This document shows, in pieces, positions 7,801 through 59,253 of a stretch of 60,781 bases of DNA. The translations under genes and the position numbers were made by a program. Position 1 is the first letter of the stretch, and every line of letters starts with the position of its first letter. Below the pieces are notes generated by a model. The model saw nothing but the letters and a program-made list of their open reading frames with translations. It searched no databases and was not told the DNA's origin. Origin of the DNA: Clostridia bacterium (GTDB lineage: Bacteria; Bacillota; Clostridia; Monoglobales; Monoglobaceae); the NCBI GenBank assembly GCA_045586445.1, contig JAZNAJ010000214.1, positions 1-60,781 on the forward strand, given 5' to 3'.

Positions 7801-8850
7801 TTAAACCATCTTCCACATTACATGGATATCCTCAGGACCAAATATAAGGCCTACCTCCAGACCCACATCAAAGTAGTCGGTTGTATGTATCATATAACTT
7901 CTGATCTCCGTCCTGACCATAATCTCATAATGTACGCCCTTGAACACAACGCTTTCAACTGTGCCGACAATCTTTGCGTTTTCGGGCTTCACAATATCAA
8001 TATCCTCAGGGCGAAGTACAACTTCAACGCCCTCGTTCTCTTTAAAGCCCTTGTCAACACATTCAAATTCAAAGCCATCAAATTCAACAAGGCAATCACG
8101 AAGCATAACCCCTTCGATTATATTGGATTCACCAATAAAGCTTGCAACAAAGCGATTTTCGGGCTCGTTATACACATCTGTCGGAGTGCCGATTTGCTGG
8201 ATGTAGCCGTCGTTCATAACAACCACCGTATCCGACATAGAAAGAGCTTCCTCCTGGTCGTGAGTTACATAAATAAAAGTAATTCCAACCTCTTTTTGAA
8301 TTTTTTTAAGTTCTGTCTGCATTTCCTTGCGGAGCTTTGCATCAAGTGCGCCCAACGGCTCGTCCAGAAGAAGGACCTTAGGCTCGTTTATAAGAGCACG
8401 AGCAATGGCAACACGCTGTTGCTGACCGCCCGAAAGGGACAAAACATCTCTCTTTTCAAAACCGCTGAGCCCAACAAGCTCTAACATTTTTTTAACCTTT
8501 TGAGCAACCACCGTCTTCTCGGTCTTTTTTATGTTAAGACCAAATGCAATATTTTCTGCCACATTAAGATGCGGGAAAAGTGCATACTTCTGAAAAACCG
8601 TATTGACCTCGCGCTTGTATGGCGGAAGGGTTGAAATCTCGATTCCGTCGAACAAAATCTCGCCCGTATCAGGCTCGTCAAAGCCGGCAATAATACGGAG
8701 TGTAGTGGTCTTTCCACAACCCGATGGGCCAAGGAGTGTCAAAAACTCATTTTCGTAAATTTTAAGGTTAATACCCTTTAAAACCTGCTGGTCATCAAAG
8801 GTCTTTGTCATATTTTTAAGTTCTATAATAGTATTCATAAGTTTCTCCAA
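7801..8850 (-). CDS. potA: spermidine/putrescine ABC transporter ATPase
   Basis: Walker [13 protein letters not shown] signature LSGGQQQR, Walker B LLLDEP and a C-terminal TOBE-like domain. Confidence 0.9.
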
Positions 8851-29946: not shown

Positions 29947-29970
29947 TTACTTGAAAGGAACTTAACAAAA

Positions 29971-52536: not shown

Positions 52537-53379
52537 ATGCGTGAAATTAATGTATCTGAAATAACCGACCTTGTTGCGGATATGTGCGTCAAATCCAATT
52601 GTCTTTTGAACGAGGATATCGAAAACGCCATTGCCAAGGGGCTTGAAACCGAAACCAATTCGTTGGCGGCGGATGTTTTGGGTGATATTTTGAAAAATGC
52701 GGATATTGCCCGCCGGGATATGGTTCCCATTTGTCAGGATACAGGTATGGCTGTATTCTTTGTTAAGCTGGGGCAGGATGTCCATCTTGTTGGCGGCGGG
52801 CTTTGTGATGCTGTCAACGAGGGGGTGCGGCGGGGATATCGCGACGGATACCTTCGCAAGTCGGTTGTCGCTGACCCGTTGCGGCGAAAAAATACAGGCG
52901 ATAATACTCCCGCAATTATACATACCGAAATCGTCGATGGCGAAACCATCGAAATCACCATCGCTCCCAAGGGATTTGGCAGCGAGAATATGAGTGGTGT
53001 GAAAATGCTTAAGCCTTCGGATGGTGTTGACGGGGTTGTGGATTTTGTTGTAGATACTGTTAAGAAAGCTTCGGGTAACCCCTGCCCTCCAATCGTTGTC
53101 GGCGTTGGGATAGGCGGGACTATGGAAAAGGCTGCTATTCTTTCAAAGCAGGCACTTTTGCGGGATGTCCATATAAGTAACCCTGATGAATACTATGCTC
53201 AGCTTGAAGAAACTCTTTTGGAAAAAATCAATCAGTTGGGGGTTGGGCCTCAAGGATACGGTGGCAAAACCACCGCCCTTGGCGTAAACATCGAAACCTT
53301 CCCCACCCACATCGCCGGGCTTCCCGTGGCTGTGAATATCAGTTGTCATGTAACGCGTCATATGACAAAGGTTATTTAA
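52537..53379 (+). CDS. Fe-S hydro-lyase (class I fumarate hydratase / L-tartrate dehydratase) alpha subunit
   Basis: 280 aa with PICQDTGMAVFFVKLGQDV and Cys ligands. No beta subunit follows. Confidence 0.85.
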   Translation: MREINVSEITDLVADMCVKSNCLLNEDIENAIAKGLETETNSLAADVLGDILKNADIARRDMVPICQDTGMAVFFVKLGQDVHLVGGGLCDAVNEGVRRGYRDGYLRKSVVADPLRRKNTGDNTPAIIHTEIVDGETIEITIAPKGFGSENMSGVKMLKPSDGVDGVVDFVVDTVKKASGNPCPPIVVGVGIGGTMEKAAILSKQALLRDVHISNPDEYYAQLEETLLEKINQLGVGPQGYGGKTTALGVNIETFPTHIAGLPVAVNISCHVTRHMTKVI

Positions 53380-53463: not shown

Positions 53464-53550
53464 GCCGGTGTGGTGGAATTGGCAGACGCGCTGGACTCAA
53501 AATCCTGTGGTAGTGATACCGTATCGGTTCGACCCCGATCACCGGCACCA
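53464..53550 (+). tRNA. tRNA-Leu (anticodon CAA), type II with long variable arm, encoded CCA
   Basis: Acceptor gccggtg/caccggc, anticodon loop ctCAAaa, variable stem ggta-gtga-tacc, T-arm atcgg-ttcgacc-ccgat and 3' ACCA. Confidence 0.9.
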
Positions 53551-53589
53551 AGTCAGAACAAACTTTGTTTGTTCTGACTTTTTCTTTTT
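53551..53589 (+). terminator. rho-independent terminator after tRNA-Leu
   Basis: agtcagaacaaac-ttt-gtttgttctgact followed by TTTTTCTTTTT. Confidence 0.8.
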
Positions 53590-53751
53590 GAAAAAATCAG
53601 CGCGCACTCCGCTGTTCCTCCTTTTTCCGCAAAATCAAGATTTTGCGGAAACCCTGCTGACCAACTTGGTCAGTTTTTATTCAGTTAGTTGACTTTTAAC
53701 TGTGTGTATGGTAAATTAATAAAAAAAATGCTTAATTTTTGGGGGGTCATT

Positions 53752-55308
53752 ATGTTGTATAATATCAAGGATTATGGGGCTGTTGGCAATGGTGATGTTT
53801 TGGAAACATCTGCCATACAGGCTGCTGTTGATGAATGTACAAAAAATGGTGGGGGTACGGTTTTGGTGCCTTCCGGAAATTATAAAATTGGCAAAATTAT
53901 ACTTAAAGATAATGTTACATTAGAAGTGAGTGCCGGAGCGAGATTGTTTGCTTCTCCAAACCGCGAAGACTACAAAGATACCCCGGGATTTTCGGGTTCG
54001 TTATATAATCAGGGTTATGACCTGAACGAAGGTACAAGAATAAGAAACGACTTGGAGGATATCCGCAAATTCAGAGTTGCGATGATTTATGCCTGCGAAG
54101 CAAAAAATATTGCCGTTACAGGCAGAGGTATAATAGATGGCCAGCATGAAAATTTCTTGATTTCAGATAACAACGCACATCATGCGGGGAAACGCTGGCA
54201 TAATGTTTCGTACAATGATGGTATCAGATGGTCCACTCGGTCAGAAAAGTTTAAATTCAGACACTTTCCTGTATTTTTTGAAGCATGCACGGATGTGGTT
54301 TTGGATGGAATTAAACTTATAAATTCTCCCGCTTATACTGTTCAAATGAGAAGTTGCGAACAGGTTCGGATAACGAATATTGTAATACGAAACTATGTGG
54401 GTGCTGAAAATTCAGATGGAATGCATTTCTCGTCTTGTACCGATGTCAGAATTTCGAATTGTGATTTTCAGTGTGGAGATGATACTATAGCAATAGATTC
54501 CAATGATATGAAACCCTCTGCGAGATTCCTTATCGAAAATTGTATTTTATTTAGCAGATTTAACTGTTTCAGAATTTTTACAAATTTAGCAGATTCTCCT
54601 GTAAAAAGGAAACTGGTTAAAGGTGGCAAAGTTAGTGACATTGTTATAAATAACATTGTTGTCAAGAATGCTTCGTCACTTATATATATAAATACCGATG
54701 ACGGCGAGATTGAAAGAGTTACTCTTACAAATGCTTCAGGAGTTATCGAAAGACTTGGAACAACTTTTCTTATCACTTCACACTCTGCAAAGGTAAACCA
54801 AGTTACTTTCGCAAATTGGAATTTCAAAAGCCGTGGTGTAGGCTATATATACAGCAATGATCCTAAAAGCATAAAAAATGTTAAATTGGATAATATTGAC
54901 ATCGAAGTTTGTCCTTCAACACAAGCTTTTGGAAATGGCTTACATATGCCTTGCTCTGACTCAGGCCAACCAAACTATCCATTATCTCACTTTGTACCAT
55001 ACTTTCTGCAAATAGTAGAAGCAGAGAATATAAGTATAAGCGATTTTTCTGTTCGTTGGGGCGAAGCAGATATTGATGATATATATGAATTAAGAGAGCC
55101 TCATCCTATGTTTGATTTTTGGAAATTATCTCCAACCAATGTAGAAAAGCATTGGCCGGCAGTAAAAATTGAAAATTCCAAGAATATAAGCTGTGATAAG
55201 GTTTCTTTAGAGCCCTTTGGAGACGACAAGGCGATTGAATTAATTGATGTAGCGGATTTTCATATTGTAAACTCAAATATAAAAGATGCCGAAATAAATA
55301 GGGCTTAA
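53752..55308 (+). CDS. GH28-like / pectin-lyase-fold right-handed beta-helix protein, no signal peptide
   Basis: N-terminus MLYNIKDYGAVGNGDVLETSAIQAAVDEC...GGGTVLVPSGNY (Pectate_lyase_3-type). Motifs NSDG and GDDTIAI correspond to GH28 NTD and GDD. The GHG and RIK blocks are not recognisable. The ATG follows GGGGGG. Confidence 0.7.
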   Translation: MLYNIKDYGAVGNGDVLETSAIQAAVDECTKNGGGTVLVPSGNYKIGKIILKDNVTLEVSAGARLFASPNREDYKDTPGFSGSLYNQGYDLNEGTRIRNDLEDIRKFRVAMIYACEAKNIAVTGRGIIDGQHENFLISDNNAHHAGKRWHNVSYNDGIRWSTRSEKFKFRHFPVFFEACTDVVLDGIKLINSPAYTVQMRSCEQVRITNIVIRNYVGAENSDGMHFSSCTDVRISNCDFQCGDDTIAIDSNDMKPSARFLIENCILFSRFNCFRIFTNLADSPVKRKLVKGGKVSDIVINNIVVKNASSLIYINTDDGEIERVTLTNASGVIERLGTTFLITSHSAKVNQVTFANWNFKSRGVGYIYSNDPKSIKNVKLDNIDIEVCPSTQAFGNGLHMPCSDSGQPNYPLSHFVPYFLQIVEAENISISDFSVRWGEADIDDIYELREPHPMFDFWKLSPTNVEKHWPAVKIENSKNISCDKVSLEPFGDDKAIELIDVADFHIVNSNIKDAEINRA

Positions 55309-55544
55309 AACTTTTTGTGCAAAAAATTAAACGCCTTTTTATTGTTTGCCAAGAATATTAAGGGAATTTATCCTTTTTTAGAATACTCTGCAAATAGCCG
55401 ACATTCACCATATAATAGATATATGCTAATAGTATAATAAATAAAATAAGTTCAGAATTTTTAAAATAAATTACAATCATGACATAAATGGAATTGTTTT
55501 TTAAAAAAAAATAGTGTATGCTTTAGGTAAAGAGGGTGAGGCCA

Positions 55545-58151
55545 ATGTATGAAATACTTAGATATGTAGACGAAAACATAAAGGAAAAGATTTCTTTGGA
55601 AGAATTGGCAAATAATTTTGGATATTCACAGTGGCATTTAAGTAAAAAATTTAAACAAACTACAGGTTATTCGTATACAGAGTATGTGAATAACCGCAGG
55701 ATGGGAATGGCCGTATTGGACATATTAAATGGCGAAAAAGTAACTGAAGTTGCTTTGAAGTATGGCTATGATACAACCAGTGGGTTTAACAAGGCATTTA
55801 TGACAAGGTTTGGGTGTAGTCCTAAAATGATGAAGAAGGAAACTATAAAATCTTATATTGAATATCAAGAAAGGCGTGATACTATGTATAAAATAACGGA
55901 TAGGGTAGAGTTTTTAAGAAATGAGGCAGTCAATGTAAAGACTATGTCTGAAAAAGTTAAGCATATTTGGCAATTCCTTTTTAGATTGGGTGAGCTTTCG
56001 TGCAGCGACAATGACTCAAATATGATTATAACTGCTAAGTCGCTTTGCAATGTAATAAAAAATTCACCTGGCATAATTTTGGATAATGAGCTGATTGTTG
56101 GATACAACTTTGGCGACAATGGCCATAACGAAAAATTCGATATCAATGATAACGAAAAAACTCGTAAAAATTTGATGCAATGCGGATTTACAAAGGAACA
56201 AATAGATTTTTACTTTGCGAATGAAAATGTGTCAAAATATAAAATGATGCCATACAAAGAAGAATACACCCCACAAGAAAGTCAGTTGCACCAAGAACGA
56301 GCTGCAATGGGCAGATGTATGGCAAACAACCACACAGTCATAGGCTATGAAGAAGTGCTAAAGCACGGCTTTGAAGGACTTTTGGAGCGAGTGGAAGCCT
56401 TTGAGAAGATAAATGGCGAATCAGATTTGTATACTTCATTAAAAATGATTTGTAATGAAGCTGTAAAGTTTGGTGATAAGTATAGCGAGGAGGCTTTAAA
56501 GCAGGCTGAAACAGCCAGCAAAGAACGAGCTGCTGAGCTTAAAGAAATCGCAAAGGTGTGTCAAAATGTACCTCGAAAACCCGCTGCTAGTTTCAGGGAG
56601 GCTATCCAAAGTCTTTGGTTTGCACACATTTTAAACACTTGGGAAGACCGCATAAACGCAAATTCTTTGGGAAGATTGGACCAAATACTGTATCCGTATT
56701 ACAAAAATGATATAGAAAATGGGGTAATATCAAAAGATGAGGCTTTTGAACTTGTTTGCTGTCTTTGGATAAAGTTATATCGCGATTATGATGTTCAGCA
56801 AAGTTGTGTTGGCGGAAGTGATGCAGACGGCAATGAAGTGGTAAATGACTTATCATATATGATGCTGGACGCAACAGAAAAACTGGATTTTATAAGATGT
56901 TTGTCTGTTAGATTTTCCAGAAATACCGATAAAAAGTTTTTAAAACGCGCGCTCGAAGTTGTTGGGCATGTTCAAAAGGGTATACCATTTTTCTTCAATG
57001 ATGATGTAATGATTCCCGCATTGGAATATGGTAATATTGCCCACGAAGATGCTGTTGGTTATAGCCAAATCGGGTGTGTTGAAACTGTAATCCCGGGAAA
57101 GTCAAATCCGCATGCGGTTACAGGGGAAACAAATTTATTAAAGGCTCTAGAATACACCCTCAACGAAGGCAAGAGTATGGTAAATGAAGGCTTTACTCCC
57201 GGTATTAATACAGGTGCTGTAAAGGATTTTGATACTTACGAAAAGTTATATTCTGCGATTAAAAAGAATATATATCATATTCTTGATGTGTGTTGCAGAA
57301 AAGTTATGATTGCAACAGATGCTCATGTTGTCAACGCTCCAAAACCATACAAATCTCTTCTTACAGAAGGTTGTGTTGAAAGCAATCGCGATTTCAATGC
57401 TTATGGGGCAAAATATGATTATTACCAGATAATGCTTGGCGGAGTTCCAAATCTTGCGGATTCGTTGGAAGTAATACGAAAGTTTGTATATGAAGACAGA
57501 AAGTATACCCTGGAGGAAGTTGTTTACCAAATGCAAAATGATTTCCCTGACGAACAGATTCGGTTGGAATTCCTTAACAGGGCAGCAAAGTTTGGCAATG
57601 ATATTGATTCAGTGGATTTTATTGCACGGGATATCATTGATTATTCATGTAGCGTACTAACGGAATTAAGTGATAAATATGACCTTTTATTCCACGCACA
57701 ACCATTTACCTATTTGTGGATGGTTGACGACGGAAAGGTGATGGCTGCAACACCTGATGGAAGACACAAAGGCGAGATAATAGCTTATAGTGTTTCGCCA
57801 ATGCAGGGAAGGGATTTCAATGGGCTTACTGCACTGTTTAACTCTCTTGCAAAACTGCCTACCAAAAAAACCCCGGGAACAACTTCTGCAATTGTCGAGG
57901 TTGACCCTGCAGCATATTCAGATAGAAATATAGATTCTCTTGTTGATATTCTTTTGACAGCCGGCGAAAAAGGGCTTTCAAATGTCCAGTTTAATACTGT
58001 AGACAAAGAAACATTGATGGAAGCACAAAAGCACCCGGAGAACTATAATAATCTGGCAGTGCGTGTATCGGGATTTAGTCAGAAGTTTAACTTGCTTGAT
58101 AAAGATTTGCAAGACCATATTATAGGAAGGACAAAACACAAATGTCTTTAA
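55545..58151 (+). CDS. fusion protein: N-terminal AraC/MarA-type double-HTH DNA-binding domain plus a full-length glycyl radical enzyme (PFL2/dehydratase-type)
   Basis: Single uninterrupted ORF; the track ORF starts at a GTG at 55536, and the ATG at 55545 is better spaced from GAGGG. HTH motifs: ISLEELANNFGYSQWHLSKKFKQ and VTEVALKYGYDTTSGFNKAFMTRFGCSP. The GRE part begins at M117 (55884, ITDRVEFLRNE...LDNELIVG). Thiyl loop is IGCVET (Cys codon 57075-57077). Glycyl radical motif is RVSGFS (Gly codon 58071-58073). Confidence 0.85.
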   Translation: MYEILRYVDENIKEKISLEELANNFGYSQWHLSKKFKQTTGYSYTEYVNNRRMGMAVLDILNGEKVTEVALKYGYDTTSGFNKAFMTRFGCSPKMMKKETIKSYIEYQERRDTMYKITDRVEFLRNEAVNVKTMSEKVKHIWQFLFRLGELSCSDNDSNMIITAKSLCNVIKNSPGIILDNELIVGYNFGDNGHNEKFDINDNEKTRKNLMQCGFTKEQIDFYFANENVSKYKMMPYKEEYTPQESQLHQERAAMGRCMANNHTVIGYEEVLKHGFEGLLERVEAFEKINGESDLYTSLKMICNEAVKFGDKYSEEALKQAETASKERAAELKEIAKVCQNVPRKPAASFREAIQSLWFAHILNTWEDRINANSLGRLDQILYPYYKNDIENGVISKDEAFELVCCLWIKLYRDYDVQQSCVGGSDADGNEVVNDLSYMMLDATEKLDFIRCLSVRFSRNTDKKFLKRALEVVGHVQKGIPFFFNDDVMIPALEYGNIAHEDAVGYSQIGCVETVIPGKSNPHAVTGETNLLKALEYTLNEGKSMVNEGFTPGINTGAVKDFDTYEKLYSAIKKNIYHILDVCCRKVMIATDAHVVNAPKPYKSLLTEGCVESNRDFNAYGAKYDYYQIMLGGVPNLADSLEVIRKFVYEDRKYTLEEVVYQMQNDFPDEQIRLEFLNRAAKFGNDIDSVDFIARDIIDYSCSVLTELSDKYDLLFHAQPFTYLWMVDDGKVMAATPDGRHKGEIIAYSVSPMQGRDFNGLTALFNSLAKLPTKKTPGTTSAIVEVDPAAYSDRNIDSLVDILLTAGEKGLSNVQFNTVDKETLMEAQKHPENYNNLAVRVSGFSQKFNLLDKDLQDHIIGRTKHKCL

Positions 58152-59059
58152 GTGCAGATATTTTCAACATTGAGAGAGCATCCTTAAACGACGGTCCTGG
58201 TATCAGGACTGTCGTTTATGTGAAGGGTTGTTCGCTCTCGTGTGTATGGTGTCACAATCCGGAAGGAATAAAGTTTGAAAACGAAATTGCATATTACAGC
58301 AATCGCTGTGTTTTGTGCGGAAGTTGTCAAAGAGTGTGCCCGCAAGGTTGTTATGAGGTAATGGATGACAAATTGAAAATCAATTATGATTCTTGCATAA
58401 AATGCCACAAATGCACAGAAAATTGTTTGACCAATGCGTTGAAGTTGTGTGCAAAAAGTATGACATCGGATGAGGTGCTTCTGGAAATTTTAAAGGATAA
58501 GGAATATTTCGACAAATCCGGCGGTGGAGTAACCTTTTCGGGCGGAGAGTGTCTTTTGAATACAGATTTTATGTGTGATATACTGAAGAAATGTAAAGAA
58601 AAAGGCATCAAAACACTTGTGGAAAGTGCATTCTATGTACCTTGGAAGAATATCGAAAGTGTAGCTTCCTTTGTTGATATGTTTTATGTGGATATCAAAC
58701 ATATGAATTCAAAAAAGCATAAAGAGTACACCGGTAAAGGAAATGAGCTTATATTGGATAACATTGCCAAGCTTGTTGAAATATGTAACCGTGTTATGAT
58801 ACGAATACCTTTAATACCGGGTGTTAATGATGATAAAGAAAATTTGATTGCCACATACGACTTTGTAAGCAAATTGGGCATTAAAAATATAATGCTTCTA
58901 AGATATAATTCCCTGGGGGAAAGCAAATATACGGCACTTAACAAAAAGTTCTTTGTCCCTAAAGGCTCTGAGCAAACCGAGAATAGTATGAAAAAATTAT
59001 GTTTTGACTTGAATGCTCAAATACATAACCCTGAATTCTTTATAACTGAATATCTATAA
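58142..59059 (+). CDS. glycyl radical enzyme activating protein (radical SAM)
   Basis: CSLSCVWCHNPE (CX3CX2C), plus a ferredoxin-like insert with CVLCGSCQRVCP and CIKCHKCTENC. The ATG overlaps the last codons of the GRE. Confidence 0.9.
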   Translation: MSLSADIFNIERASLNDGPGIRTVVYVKGCSLSCVWCHNPEGIKFENEIAYYSNRCVLCGSCQRVCPQGCYEVMDDKLKINYDSCIKCHKCTENCLTNALKLCAKSMTSDEVLLEILKDKEYFDKSGGGVTFSGGECLLNTDFMCDILKKCKEKGIKTLVESAFYVPWKNIESVASFVDMFYVDIKHMNSKKHKEYTGKGNELILDNIAKLVEICNRVMIRIPLIPGVNDDKENLIATYDFVSKLGIKNIMLLRYNSLGESKYTALNKKFFVPKGSEQTENSMKKLCFDLNAQIHNPEFFITEYL

Positions 59060-59124
59060 TGCTAATAGCCTTTATACTGTGTTGTATTTAAGGATATAAG
59101 CAGGCAGAAAGAAAACAACATATC

Positions 59125-59154
59125 AAAAAACCTACTCTTTTGAGTAGGTTTTTT
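59125..59154. terminator. bidirectional rho-independent terminator
   Basis: aaaaaacctactc-tttt-gagtaggtttttt. It serves the activase (+) and tRNA-Gly (-). Confidence 0.8.
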
Positions 59155-59179
59155 GATTACAACATAGTTTGCTGCAGTA

Positions 59180-59253
59180 TGGAGCAGGCAACGAGAGTCG
59201 AACTCGCAACGGCGGCTTGGGAAGCCGTAGTTTTACCGCTAAACTATGCCTGC
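59180..59253 (-). tRNA. tRNA-Gly (anticodon CCC), encoded CCA
   Basis: Reverse complement is gcaggca-ta-gttt-agcggta-aaac-t-acggc-ttCCCaa-gccgc-cgtt-gcgag-ttcgact-ctcgt-tgcctgc-t-cca. The cloverleaf is good apart from one A-C pair at 27-43. U73 is typical of tRNA-Gly. Confidence 0.85.

Follow-up and report, generated by a model that had tools for sequence, protein, structure and literature searches.

Can a glycyl radical enzyme (GRE) form part of a transcription factor? In gut anaerobes, few enzyme families are as abundant as the GREs and few are as poorly understood; for most GRE subfamilies, no substrate is known. The question is raised by a gene of a Clostridia bacterium of the family Monoglobaceae (GenBank assembly GCA_045586445.1, contig JAZNAJ010000214.1, positions 1 to 60,781); we refer to this whole stretch of 60,781 nt as the window. 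A preliminary description of the window had reported one continuous open reading frame (ORF) in which an AraC/MarA-type helix-turn-helix (HTH) domain comes first, without a sensor domain, and is followed by a complete GRE and then by an activase of its own. Our results indicate that this arrangement is real and conserved, and the coordinates reported for it all proved correct: the codons of the catalytic cysteine (57075-57077) and glycine (58071-58073), a methionine at the boundary of the two domains (ATG 55884) and the start of the activase (ATG 58142). The comparisons described below support a role of the fused protein at its own promoter and suggest that a second product, devoid of the HTH, is probably made from the same gene.

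The ORF is uninterrupted and spans positions 55536/55545-58151 of the forward strand. Aligning the window protein with 26 relatives placed the start codon at ATG 55545 (MYEILRYV...). The Shine-Dalgarno (SD) sequence before it, GAGGGTGAGG, forms a duplex with the anti-SD at an energy of -11.2 kcal/mol. Counted from this ATG, the protein has 868 amino acids and the boundary methionine is M114 (M117 when counted from GTG 55536). Profile searches, which the preliminary description had called for, recognized both halves of the protein: Pfam placed HTH_18 at residues 21-97 (E = 1e-18, 67.9 bits for a cut-off of 33.6), HTH_AraC at residues 9-49 (49 bits for a cut-off of 26.6), PFL-like at residues 160-716 (E = 3e-124) and Gly_radical at residues 749-849 (E = 3e-24). 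Residues 2-100 cover the whole DNA-binding domain of MarA (residues 14-110), and also those of RamA, Rob and SoxS (E-values from 1e-12 to 1e-16). The AlphaFold2 (AF2) model has seven helices in this domain, with a predicted local distance difference test score (pLDDT) of 83-91. Based on Pfam, the MarA alignment and the AF2 model, we delimited a MarA/Rob-type two-HTH domain at residues 1-100 (55545-55844, forward strand). The linker that follows (residues 101-113; 55845-55883, forward strand) is the C-terminal part of a long helix predicted by AF2 at residues 93-113 and contains, as judged from anti-SD energies, an internal SD (AGAAAGG, 55868-55874). The GRE, of the PFL2 eliminating type according to Pfam, NCBIfam, Foldseek and an alignment to the structure 1r8w, extends from the boundary ATG to the end of the ORF (55884-58151, forward strand). 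Positions 55309-55544, upstream of the gene, are AT-rich (~31-32% GC) without any ORF of at least 50 amino acids, in agreement with the earlier reading, and this 236-nt leader gave no Rfam match to an RNA element at E ≤ 0.1.

An ORF of this kind could be an assembly or sequencing artefact in which a lost stop codon or a frameshift joins two genes. We searched a space of 5.8 billion proteins and found the family to comprise at least 120 clusters, a count that is a lower bound. The window protein and the 119 further top clusters share 55-68% identity over 97-100% coverage with lengths of 848-892 amino acids, and all 119 of these other clusters possess HTH_18, PFL-like and Gly_radical together. 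Their source names ('helix-turn-helix domain-containing protein' or 'pyruvate formate lyase family protein') are automatic labels. In a sequence library clustered at 50% identity, about 20 representatives matched both the HTH and the N-terminus of the GRE. We also assembled a set of loci with one genome per GTDB species. This yielded 80 loci, all from metagenome-assembled genomes (MAGs) and nearly all from gut or digester Clostridia (for example, Oscillospiraceae, Christensenellales, Congzhengia, Ructibacterium and Faecousia), of which ~58 carry the fused gene. The same in-frame junction is therefore shared by at least 120 independent clusters and ~58 genomes from differing studies and assemblers, on which ground we rejected the artefact; we found no point in its favor and regard its probability as practically nil. 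Three of the fused loci (L035, L062 and L069) appear disrupted, with the HTH and GRE parts in different frames or separated by a stop codon, and these may be pseudogenes or MAG assembly errors.

The fusion is not only widespread in gut Clostridia, where it offers several direct experimental handles, but also closely conserved. The junction is free of indels in the 27 aligned members, and the invariant positions of this alignment include G26 Y27 S28, G74 Y75 and G80 F81 N82 K83, which form the HTH signature, as well as the boundary methionine. Mean pairwise identity within the family is 56% for the HTH and 59% for the enzyme part. The HTH is a complete bipartite AraC-type domain under purifying selection. 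No member was found in which a stop codon had been regained between intact halves. The preliminary description had stated that its reading would fall if homologues consistently showed the two parts as separate ORFs or had replaced the catalytic Gly and Cys. Neither was seen, and Gly843, Cys511, Glu513 and His263 are invariant in all 27 aligned members.

The HTH is absent from some close relatives. About 20 of the 80 loci encode an orthologous GRE (50-61% identity) that begins at the boundary methionine, and in none of these loci is an AraC-type gene present within 8 kb, which led us to reject the possibility that the two parts exist as separate genes in homologues. In a neighbor-joining tree of the GRE parts, built without bootstrap, the HTH-less genes are scattered among the fused clades, and some of them also form a basal group. 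Several HTH-less loci retain remnants of the fusion: the linker (L061, L068 and L082), part of the HTH (L066) or the operator that is described below (L078 and L082). A degenerate operator, a TATAAT -10 hexamer and a remnant of the linker, ERR(D/R), directly precede the GRE start in L078 (~7980-8150) and L082 (~770-850), which are apparent clean in-frame deletions of the HTH-coding segment. The remnants and the scattered positions in the tree indicate an old fusion that was followed by repeated loss of the HTH. Because close orthologues do without the HTH, and because it was lost several times, this domain is best viewed as an accessory regulatory module and not as an obligatory part of the working enzyme. 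The repeated clean losses constitute natural controls for future experiments.

The enzyme half has all the catalytic hallmarks of an eliminating or dehydratase-type GRE. The radical motif RVSGFSQKF, with Gly843 encoded at 58071-58073, conforms to RVxG[FWY]. The thiyl loop IGCVET, with Cys511 (57075-57077) and Glu513 (57081-57083), aligns with IGCVEP of the B12-independent glycerol dehydratase (GDH). Residues 118-865 align over the full length of GDH (1r8w, E = 1e-92). In this alignment Glu513 corresponds to Glu435 of GDH, Ser282 and Asp447 of GDH are replaced by Ala372 and Val525, and His263 (codon 56331-56333), within NHTVIGY, corresponds to His164 (GHVSVDY). We take His164 to be the general-acid histidine of diol and hydroxyproline dehydratases, a role that His263 would presumably share. 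The AF2 model of the fused protein (pLDDT 83, predicted template modeling score 0.79) presents the ten-stranded barrel of the GRE fold, and Foldseek matched it to 1r8w, 5i2g, 6vxc and 5fau with a probability of 1.00 and TM-scores of 0.67-0.75. GDH, propanediol dehydratase, CutC and HypD are matched about equally by fold, at ~26% identity; they share with the fused protein the RVxG motif, the GCVE thiyl loop, an adjacent activase with ferredoxin domains and, for GDH, the equivalent of His164, and none of these solved enzymes has a DNA-binding domain. The GRE scored below the cut-off of the subfamily TIGR01774 (410 vs. 678 bits) and far below every equivalog cut-off of NCBIfam (363 vs. 1100 for HypD and 338 vs. 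1050 for CutC, for example). By these scores, the enzyme is a divergent, separate GRE subfamily. Set against what is known of GREs, the pattern of His263, Glu513, Ala372 and Val525 fits a 1,2-eliminating enzyme (dehydratase or lyase) whose substrate is not glycerol. A small hydroxylated compound that undergoes 1,2-elimination is the probable substrate.

The activase is a GRE-activating radical S-adenosylmethionine enzyme (58142-59059, forward strand; TIGR02494, Radical_SAM and Fer4). It scored 326 bits against TIGR02494 (cut-off 174) and presents CSLSCVWC (CX3CX2C) and two ferredoxin-like Fer4 motifs. Its ATG overlaps the GRE stop by 10 nt, from which we predict that the two genes are co-transcribed and translationally coupled. 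An activase adjoins the GRE in 58 of the 80 dereplicated loci, usually with the same (-9) overlap. The closest relative of the window gene (L086, 68% identity) has no activase downstream; its next gene encodes a 623-amino acid protein without a Pfam match and is followed by genes for SLH- and CBM-containing surface proteins. In the window, a terminator scan detected a 16-bp hairpin flanked by T-runs (59122-59157) that separates the activase from the convergent tRNA-Gly and membrane-protein genes; the operon probably ends at this hairpin.

The linker raises the question of how many proteins the fused gene specifies. The peptide that precedes the invariant boundary methionine is YYERR[K/R], encoded as GAAAGGAG. 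Of 56 non-identical fused genes, 51 have an SD core 4-18 nt ahead of the boundary ATG; for other in-frame ATGs, the count is 29 of 977. The mean anti-SD energy at the boundary ATG of the fused genes is -11.0 kcal/mol (96% at -8 or below; -10.5 in the window), compared with -11.5 kcal/mol for the N-terminal starts of the same genes, -10.5 kcal/mol for the starts of HTH-less orthologues and -2.0 kcal/mol for other in-frame ATGs. Codon usage differs at this position as well: AGA and AGG account for 88% of the arginine codons (AGG alone for 46%) in the six codons before the boundary ATG, vs. 34% (12%) in the rest of the genes. This bias points to selection at the nucleotide level, beyond the amino-acid sequence. 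According to the starts that we assigned, 18 of 52 genes use GTG or TTG at the N-terminus, and the internal start is always ATG. We considered an internal promoter as the source of a short isoform, and this was unsupported (2 of 55 loci vs. a background of 7%).

Since the ribosome-binding site of the boundary ATG is as strong as those of genuine starts, we infer that initiation at ATG 55884 probably also yields an HTH-free GRE of 752 amino acids from the same mRNA. GREs of the eliminating clade are dimers, so that heterodimers of one long and one short chain, with a single DNA-binding head, are likely; such single-headed dimers would fit the single asymmetric operator described below. Comparable arrangements are found in CheA-L/CheA-S, ClpB95/ClpB80 and IF2 alpha/beta, where an in-frame internal start with its own SD gives an N-terminally shortened product. 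Unlike in these cases, the domain that is dropped here is the DNA-binding one, and the predicted products are a regulator-enzyme and a plain enzyme. This predicted dual-start design, with both proteins specified by one ORF, is directly testable.

The strength of the internal start could also be read as a sign that the two halves have little to do with each other. Under such a scenario, a marA-like gene and a GRE gene merged when a stop codon was lost, no enzyme but the short isoform matters, and the long form is either a MarA-type regulator with a passive 85-kDa tail or a protein whose HTH is being lost. The repeated loss of the HTH and the disrupted ORFs of L035, L062 and L069 would be expected as well. 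The fused state has nonetheless been kept across lineages that are ~55% identical, and the indel-free linker, the conservation of the HTH at nearly the level of the enzyme (56% vs. 59%) and the fact that no member with two intact halves has regained a stop codon between them indicate that the covalent link is itself under selection. We therefore consider a decoupled fusion highly improbable.

Upstream of the fused genes, conservation is confined to two blocks, a -10 hexamer and the motif a-CGCAA-N4-GGAGTAG-aaat, whose 3' end coincides with the -35 position at a fixed distance of 16-17 nt upstream of the -10. In 47 of 52 fused loci the core CGCAA-N4-GGAGTAG precedes the start codon by 41-67 nt, and it is also present in the closest relative, L086. 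Its half-sites are ~9-10 bp apart. MarA and Rob insert two recognition helices into successive major grooves, and this spacing is as expected for a bipartite AraC-type domain that does the same. The geometry of operator, -35 and -10 is alike in 50 family loci. Across these loci the -10 hexamer is near consensus (on average 5.4 of 6 matches, with a TGn extension in 64%), and the -35 hexamer is weak (on average 3.2 of 6 matches; 3 or fewer in 33 of the 50).

We built a position weight matrix from 45 non-identical family sites and scanned the window with it. The predicted binding site of the fused HTH has the core GACATAAATGGAATTG (55481-55496, forward strand), a degenerate copy of CGCAA-N4-GGAGTAG. 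The corresponding 24-mer (55479-55502) scored 13.6 bits, which is the second-best value among ~121,000 positions (60.8 kb, both strands), and is found at an offset typical of the family, 44 nt before the ATG. From the family geometry we predict a sigma-A promoter at 55494-55522 (forward strand), with a weak -35 hexamer TTGTTT (55494-55499) that overlaps the operator at its 3' end and is separated by 17 nt from the -10 hexamer TATGCT (55517-55522). The best match in the window (position 29962, 13.9 bits) overlaps the start codon of argJ and was taken as chance rather than as a second operator. The preliminary description had also named 53590-53751 as a candidate target; this region contained no operator match of 8 bits or more.

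The operator follows the presence of the HTH. Eleven of 14 HTH-less orthologues have no operator match, and the two that match are L082 (16.4 bits) and L078 (9.9 bits). The operator also follows the sequence of the HTH: operator distance was correlated with HTH distance given GRE distance (partial Mantel r = 0.27, permutation p = 0.0005) and was not correlated with GRE distance given HTH distance (r = -0.003), although partial Mantel tests are liberal for phylogenetically related sequences, which tempers this part of the case. The co-occurrence and co-variation of operator and HTH support a role of the fused protein as a transcription factor, and the proposal of the preliminary description to this effect has gained from the conserved operator predicted at the gene's own promoter.

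How might such a protein act? On balance, we lean slightly towards an autoregulated GRE cassette in which the enzyme carries its own Rob-like regulator and activates transcription in response to a ligand. The full-length 868-amino acid protein would bind the operator with one HTH per site, as MarA and Rob do, and would thereby control transcription of its own gene and of the activase gene. Internal initiation at ATG 55884 would supply the bulk of the catalytic 752-amino acid GRE, and the dimers would be mixtures of long and short chains. The GRE body would serve as the ligand-sensing domain, as in Rob, with substrate occupancy freeing or re-orienting the HTH, and the freed HTH would activate the weak -35 promoter from a class-II-like position. 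A regulator carried by the enzyme itself would account for the inducibility of an orphan cassette at any genomic site that it reaches, and the cassette would be a natural case of a portable metabolic unit equipped with its own control. The fused HTH and its predicted operator would also amount to a built-in reporter: if DNA binding is ligand-responsive, a screen for the substrate can make use of the promoter and its operator.

The likeness to Rob, MarA, SoxS and RamA is substantial. Their 100-residue two-HTH domain aligns from end to end with that of the fused protein, the HTH comes first as it does in Rob, and the predicted target is a single asymmetric bipartite site of ~18 bp overlapping the -35, similar to class II marbox promoters. 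There are also clear differences. The C-terminal domain of Rob is a GyrI-like ligand-binding domain of ~170 amino acids and no enzyme, whereas that of the fused protein is a dimeric radical enzyme of 752 amino acids with an activase; the operator CGCAA-N4-GGAGTAG differs from the marbox; and the fused protein is far below the NCBIfam cut-offs of Rob, MarA, SoxS and RamA. The label 'Rob-like' used in the preliminary description is therefore apt for the architecture, an N-terminal MarA-type domain with a C-terminal effector, and does not extend to membership of the Rob family proper (57.8 bits against RobA_TF, for a cut-off of 380).

The position of the operator is equally open to an interpretation as a repressor site. 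PutA, an enzyme with an N-terminal DNA-binding domain that represses its own operon, provides a precedent, and the HTH-GRE could likewise act by negative autoregulation, occluding the -35 region of its own promoter. Repression would be relieved by substrate turnover or by titration of long chains into heterodimers with the short isoform, and in its simplest version this would be dosage homeostasis of a costly, oxygen-labile enzyme. The overlap of the operator with the -35 position is consistent with this, and so is the -10 hexamer (5.4 of 6 matches, TGn in 64%), which leaves a promoter that is perhaps active unaided. However, the closest domain relatives MarA, SoxS, Rob and RamA are activators that act from positions overlapping the -35, and promoters that depend on an activator typically have a -35 hexamer as weak as the one observed here (3.2 of 6; 3 or fewer matches in 33 of 50 loci). 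It is for these two reasons that we favor activation, and we regard repression of the PutA type as rather unlikely.

Several further observations count against the Rob-like activation model. The operator of the window is the weakest of the family (13.6 bits, for a family minimum of 15.7) and has a T at the third base of CAA, where A is 97% conserved. As a side observation, the Lys of the family's first recognition helix is replaced by Gln in the window protein (GYSQWHL vs. GYSKWHF; 55545-55650), and the two substitutions may be a compensatory pair, of which this is a single case. Outside of the self-promoters, strong sites were found in 1.1 Mb of loci only before the lipoprotein genes of L042 and L049. 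Promoter strength did not differ between fused and HTH-less loci (p = 0.94), the near-consensus -10 with its TGn in 64% of loci means that the promoters might fire without an activator, and a protein bound on the -35 could equally repress. Finally, the internal SD could be a retained relic or a translational pause site instead of a start signal.

The operator copies before the lipoprotein genes score 30.0 bits in L042 (6447-7998) and 18.7 bits in L049 (1439-3210), and the genes, which encode proteins of 492-565 amino acids, are located directly 5' of the fusion. Pfam gave a credible family for neither protein, and the one of L049 is distantly related to family-1 solute-binding proteins of the AlgQ type. 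These lipoproteins may be co-regulated uptake components. A scan of metagenome contigs for CRCAATTTTGGAGTWGAWWT returned 40 matches, which by our estimate is about the number expected by chance, and only 2 of these were upstream of a fusion gene.

Beyond the mode of regulation, it can be asked which property of the enzyme would be sensed. An intact GRE active site and a DNA-binding domain are present in one chain, as they are in the trigger enzymes PutA, BirA and NadR, which also combine a catalytic and a DNA-binding domain in one polypeptide, and the predicted operator is likewise at the promoter of the protein's own operon. PutA differs in that it joins a ribbon-helix-helix domain to a flavoenzyme and switches through reduction of flavin adenine dinucleotide and membrane binding. 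In Ada/AdaA, too, an AraC-family HTH is linked to an enzyme-like methyl-acceptor or repair domain, and the chemical state of that domain could govern transcription; Ada differs as a stoichiometric suicide methyl acceptor with an internal HTH, and its non-HTH part is not homologous. To our knowledge, no GRE is among the known trigger enzymes. A full-text literature search, which included a recent review, did not turn up any account of a GRE that carries a DNA-binding domain, and a GRE as the effector domain of an enzyme-transcription factor fusion thus appears not to have been described before. Tentatively, we propose as a possibility that the fused protein is a trigger enzyme of a new chemical class, in which the state of the enzyme (substrate, glycyl radical or oxygen damage) would be transmitted through a rigid linker helix to the MarA-type domain and gate transcription of the GRE and activase genes, with the ratio of long to short chains from the two competing starts tuning the number of DNA-binding heads. 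If true, a radical enzyme would join the short list of enzyme-transcription factor fusions (PutA, BirA and Ada), and this would be the first transcription factor with a radical enzyme as its sensor.

A narrower version of this proposal is that DNA binding is gated specifically by the glycyl radical, or by cleavage of the GRE by O2, and not by the substrate. One polypeptide does join the Gly843 domain to the HTH through a helix that is predicted to continue from residues 93-113 into 119-131, and with the activase in the same operon a feedback on activation capacity would make sense. On the other hand, no sequence feature points specifically to such sensing, the HTH and the radical domain lie at opposite ends of the chain, and the HTH-less orthologues manage without it. 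We know of no precedent for a sensor of radical or oxygen state of this type and consider it quite improbable.

The surroundings of the cassette were analyzed for conserved partners. An all-against-all clustering of 773 flanking ORFs yielded the activase as the only conserved neighbor, and a Pfam census of the 133 immediate neighbors gave the same result, with AraC regulators at 10 of 133. The activase being the sole conserved neighbor, the fused gene and the activase appear to constitute a self-contained orphan cassette. One locus, from a Congzhengia sp. MAG (L001, 5931-9747), has a second GRE (705 amino acids) with its own activase immediately upstream of the fusion cassette, together with a divergently transcribed classical AraC regulator of 275 amino acids whose HTH is C-terminal. 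This provides a natural side-by-side comparison of a separate and a fused regulator. A similar second GRE-activase pair is present in L015.

We also looked for a substrate in the gene neighborhood. This approach was rejected because the recurrent pectin and rhamnose genes are found in too few loci: genes for a rhamnosidase, RpiB or a xylose-isomerase-like TIM barrel protein are near the cassette in a few loci, and GH28-like genes flank it in the window and in L018, L024, L055, L056 and L076. Compounds derived from plant glycans are a weak lead. The GH28-like gene of the window is directly upstream of the fused gene (53689-55308, forward strand) and encodes a GH28 or pectate-lyase-fold protein. 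Its top NCBIfam matches, rhamnogalacturonidase and polygalacturonase, fall well short of the respective cut-offs, and the gene is preceded by no operator match of 8 bits or more.

The genes of the GH28-like protein, the HTH-GRE and the activase are enclosed by tRNA-Leu(CAA) (53464-53550, forward strand) and tRNA-Gly(CCC) (59180-59253, reverse strand). This segment, 53464-59253, has a GC content of ~31-40%, compared with 42-46% in the DNA to its left. It may have been horizontally acquired; the genomic context of the cassette, which varies among the other loci, would agree with this. Further upstream in the window, the gene at 52537-53379 (forward strand) encodes the alpha subunit of a class I fumarate hydratase (Pfam Fumerase only) and is followed by the tRNA-Leu gene and not by a gene for the beta subunit. 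Read from translations only, the segment 29008-32565 (forward strand) is an arginine biosynthesis cluster in which argC-argJ-argB are followed by an ArgR-like gene.

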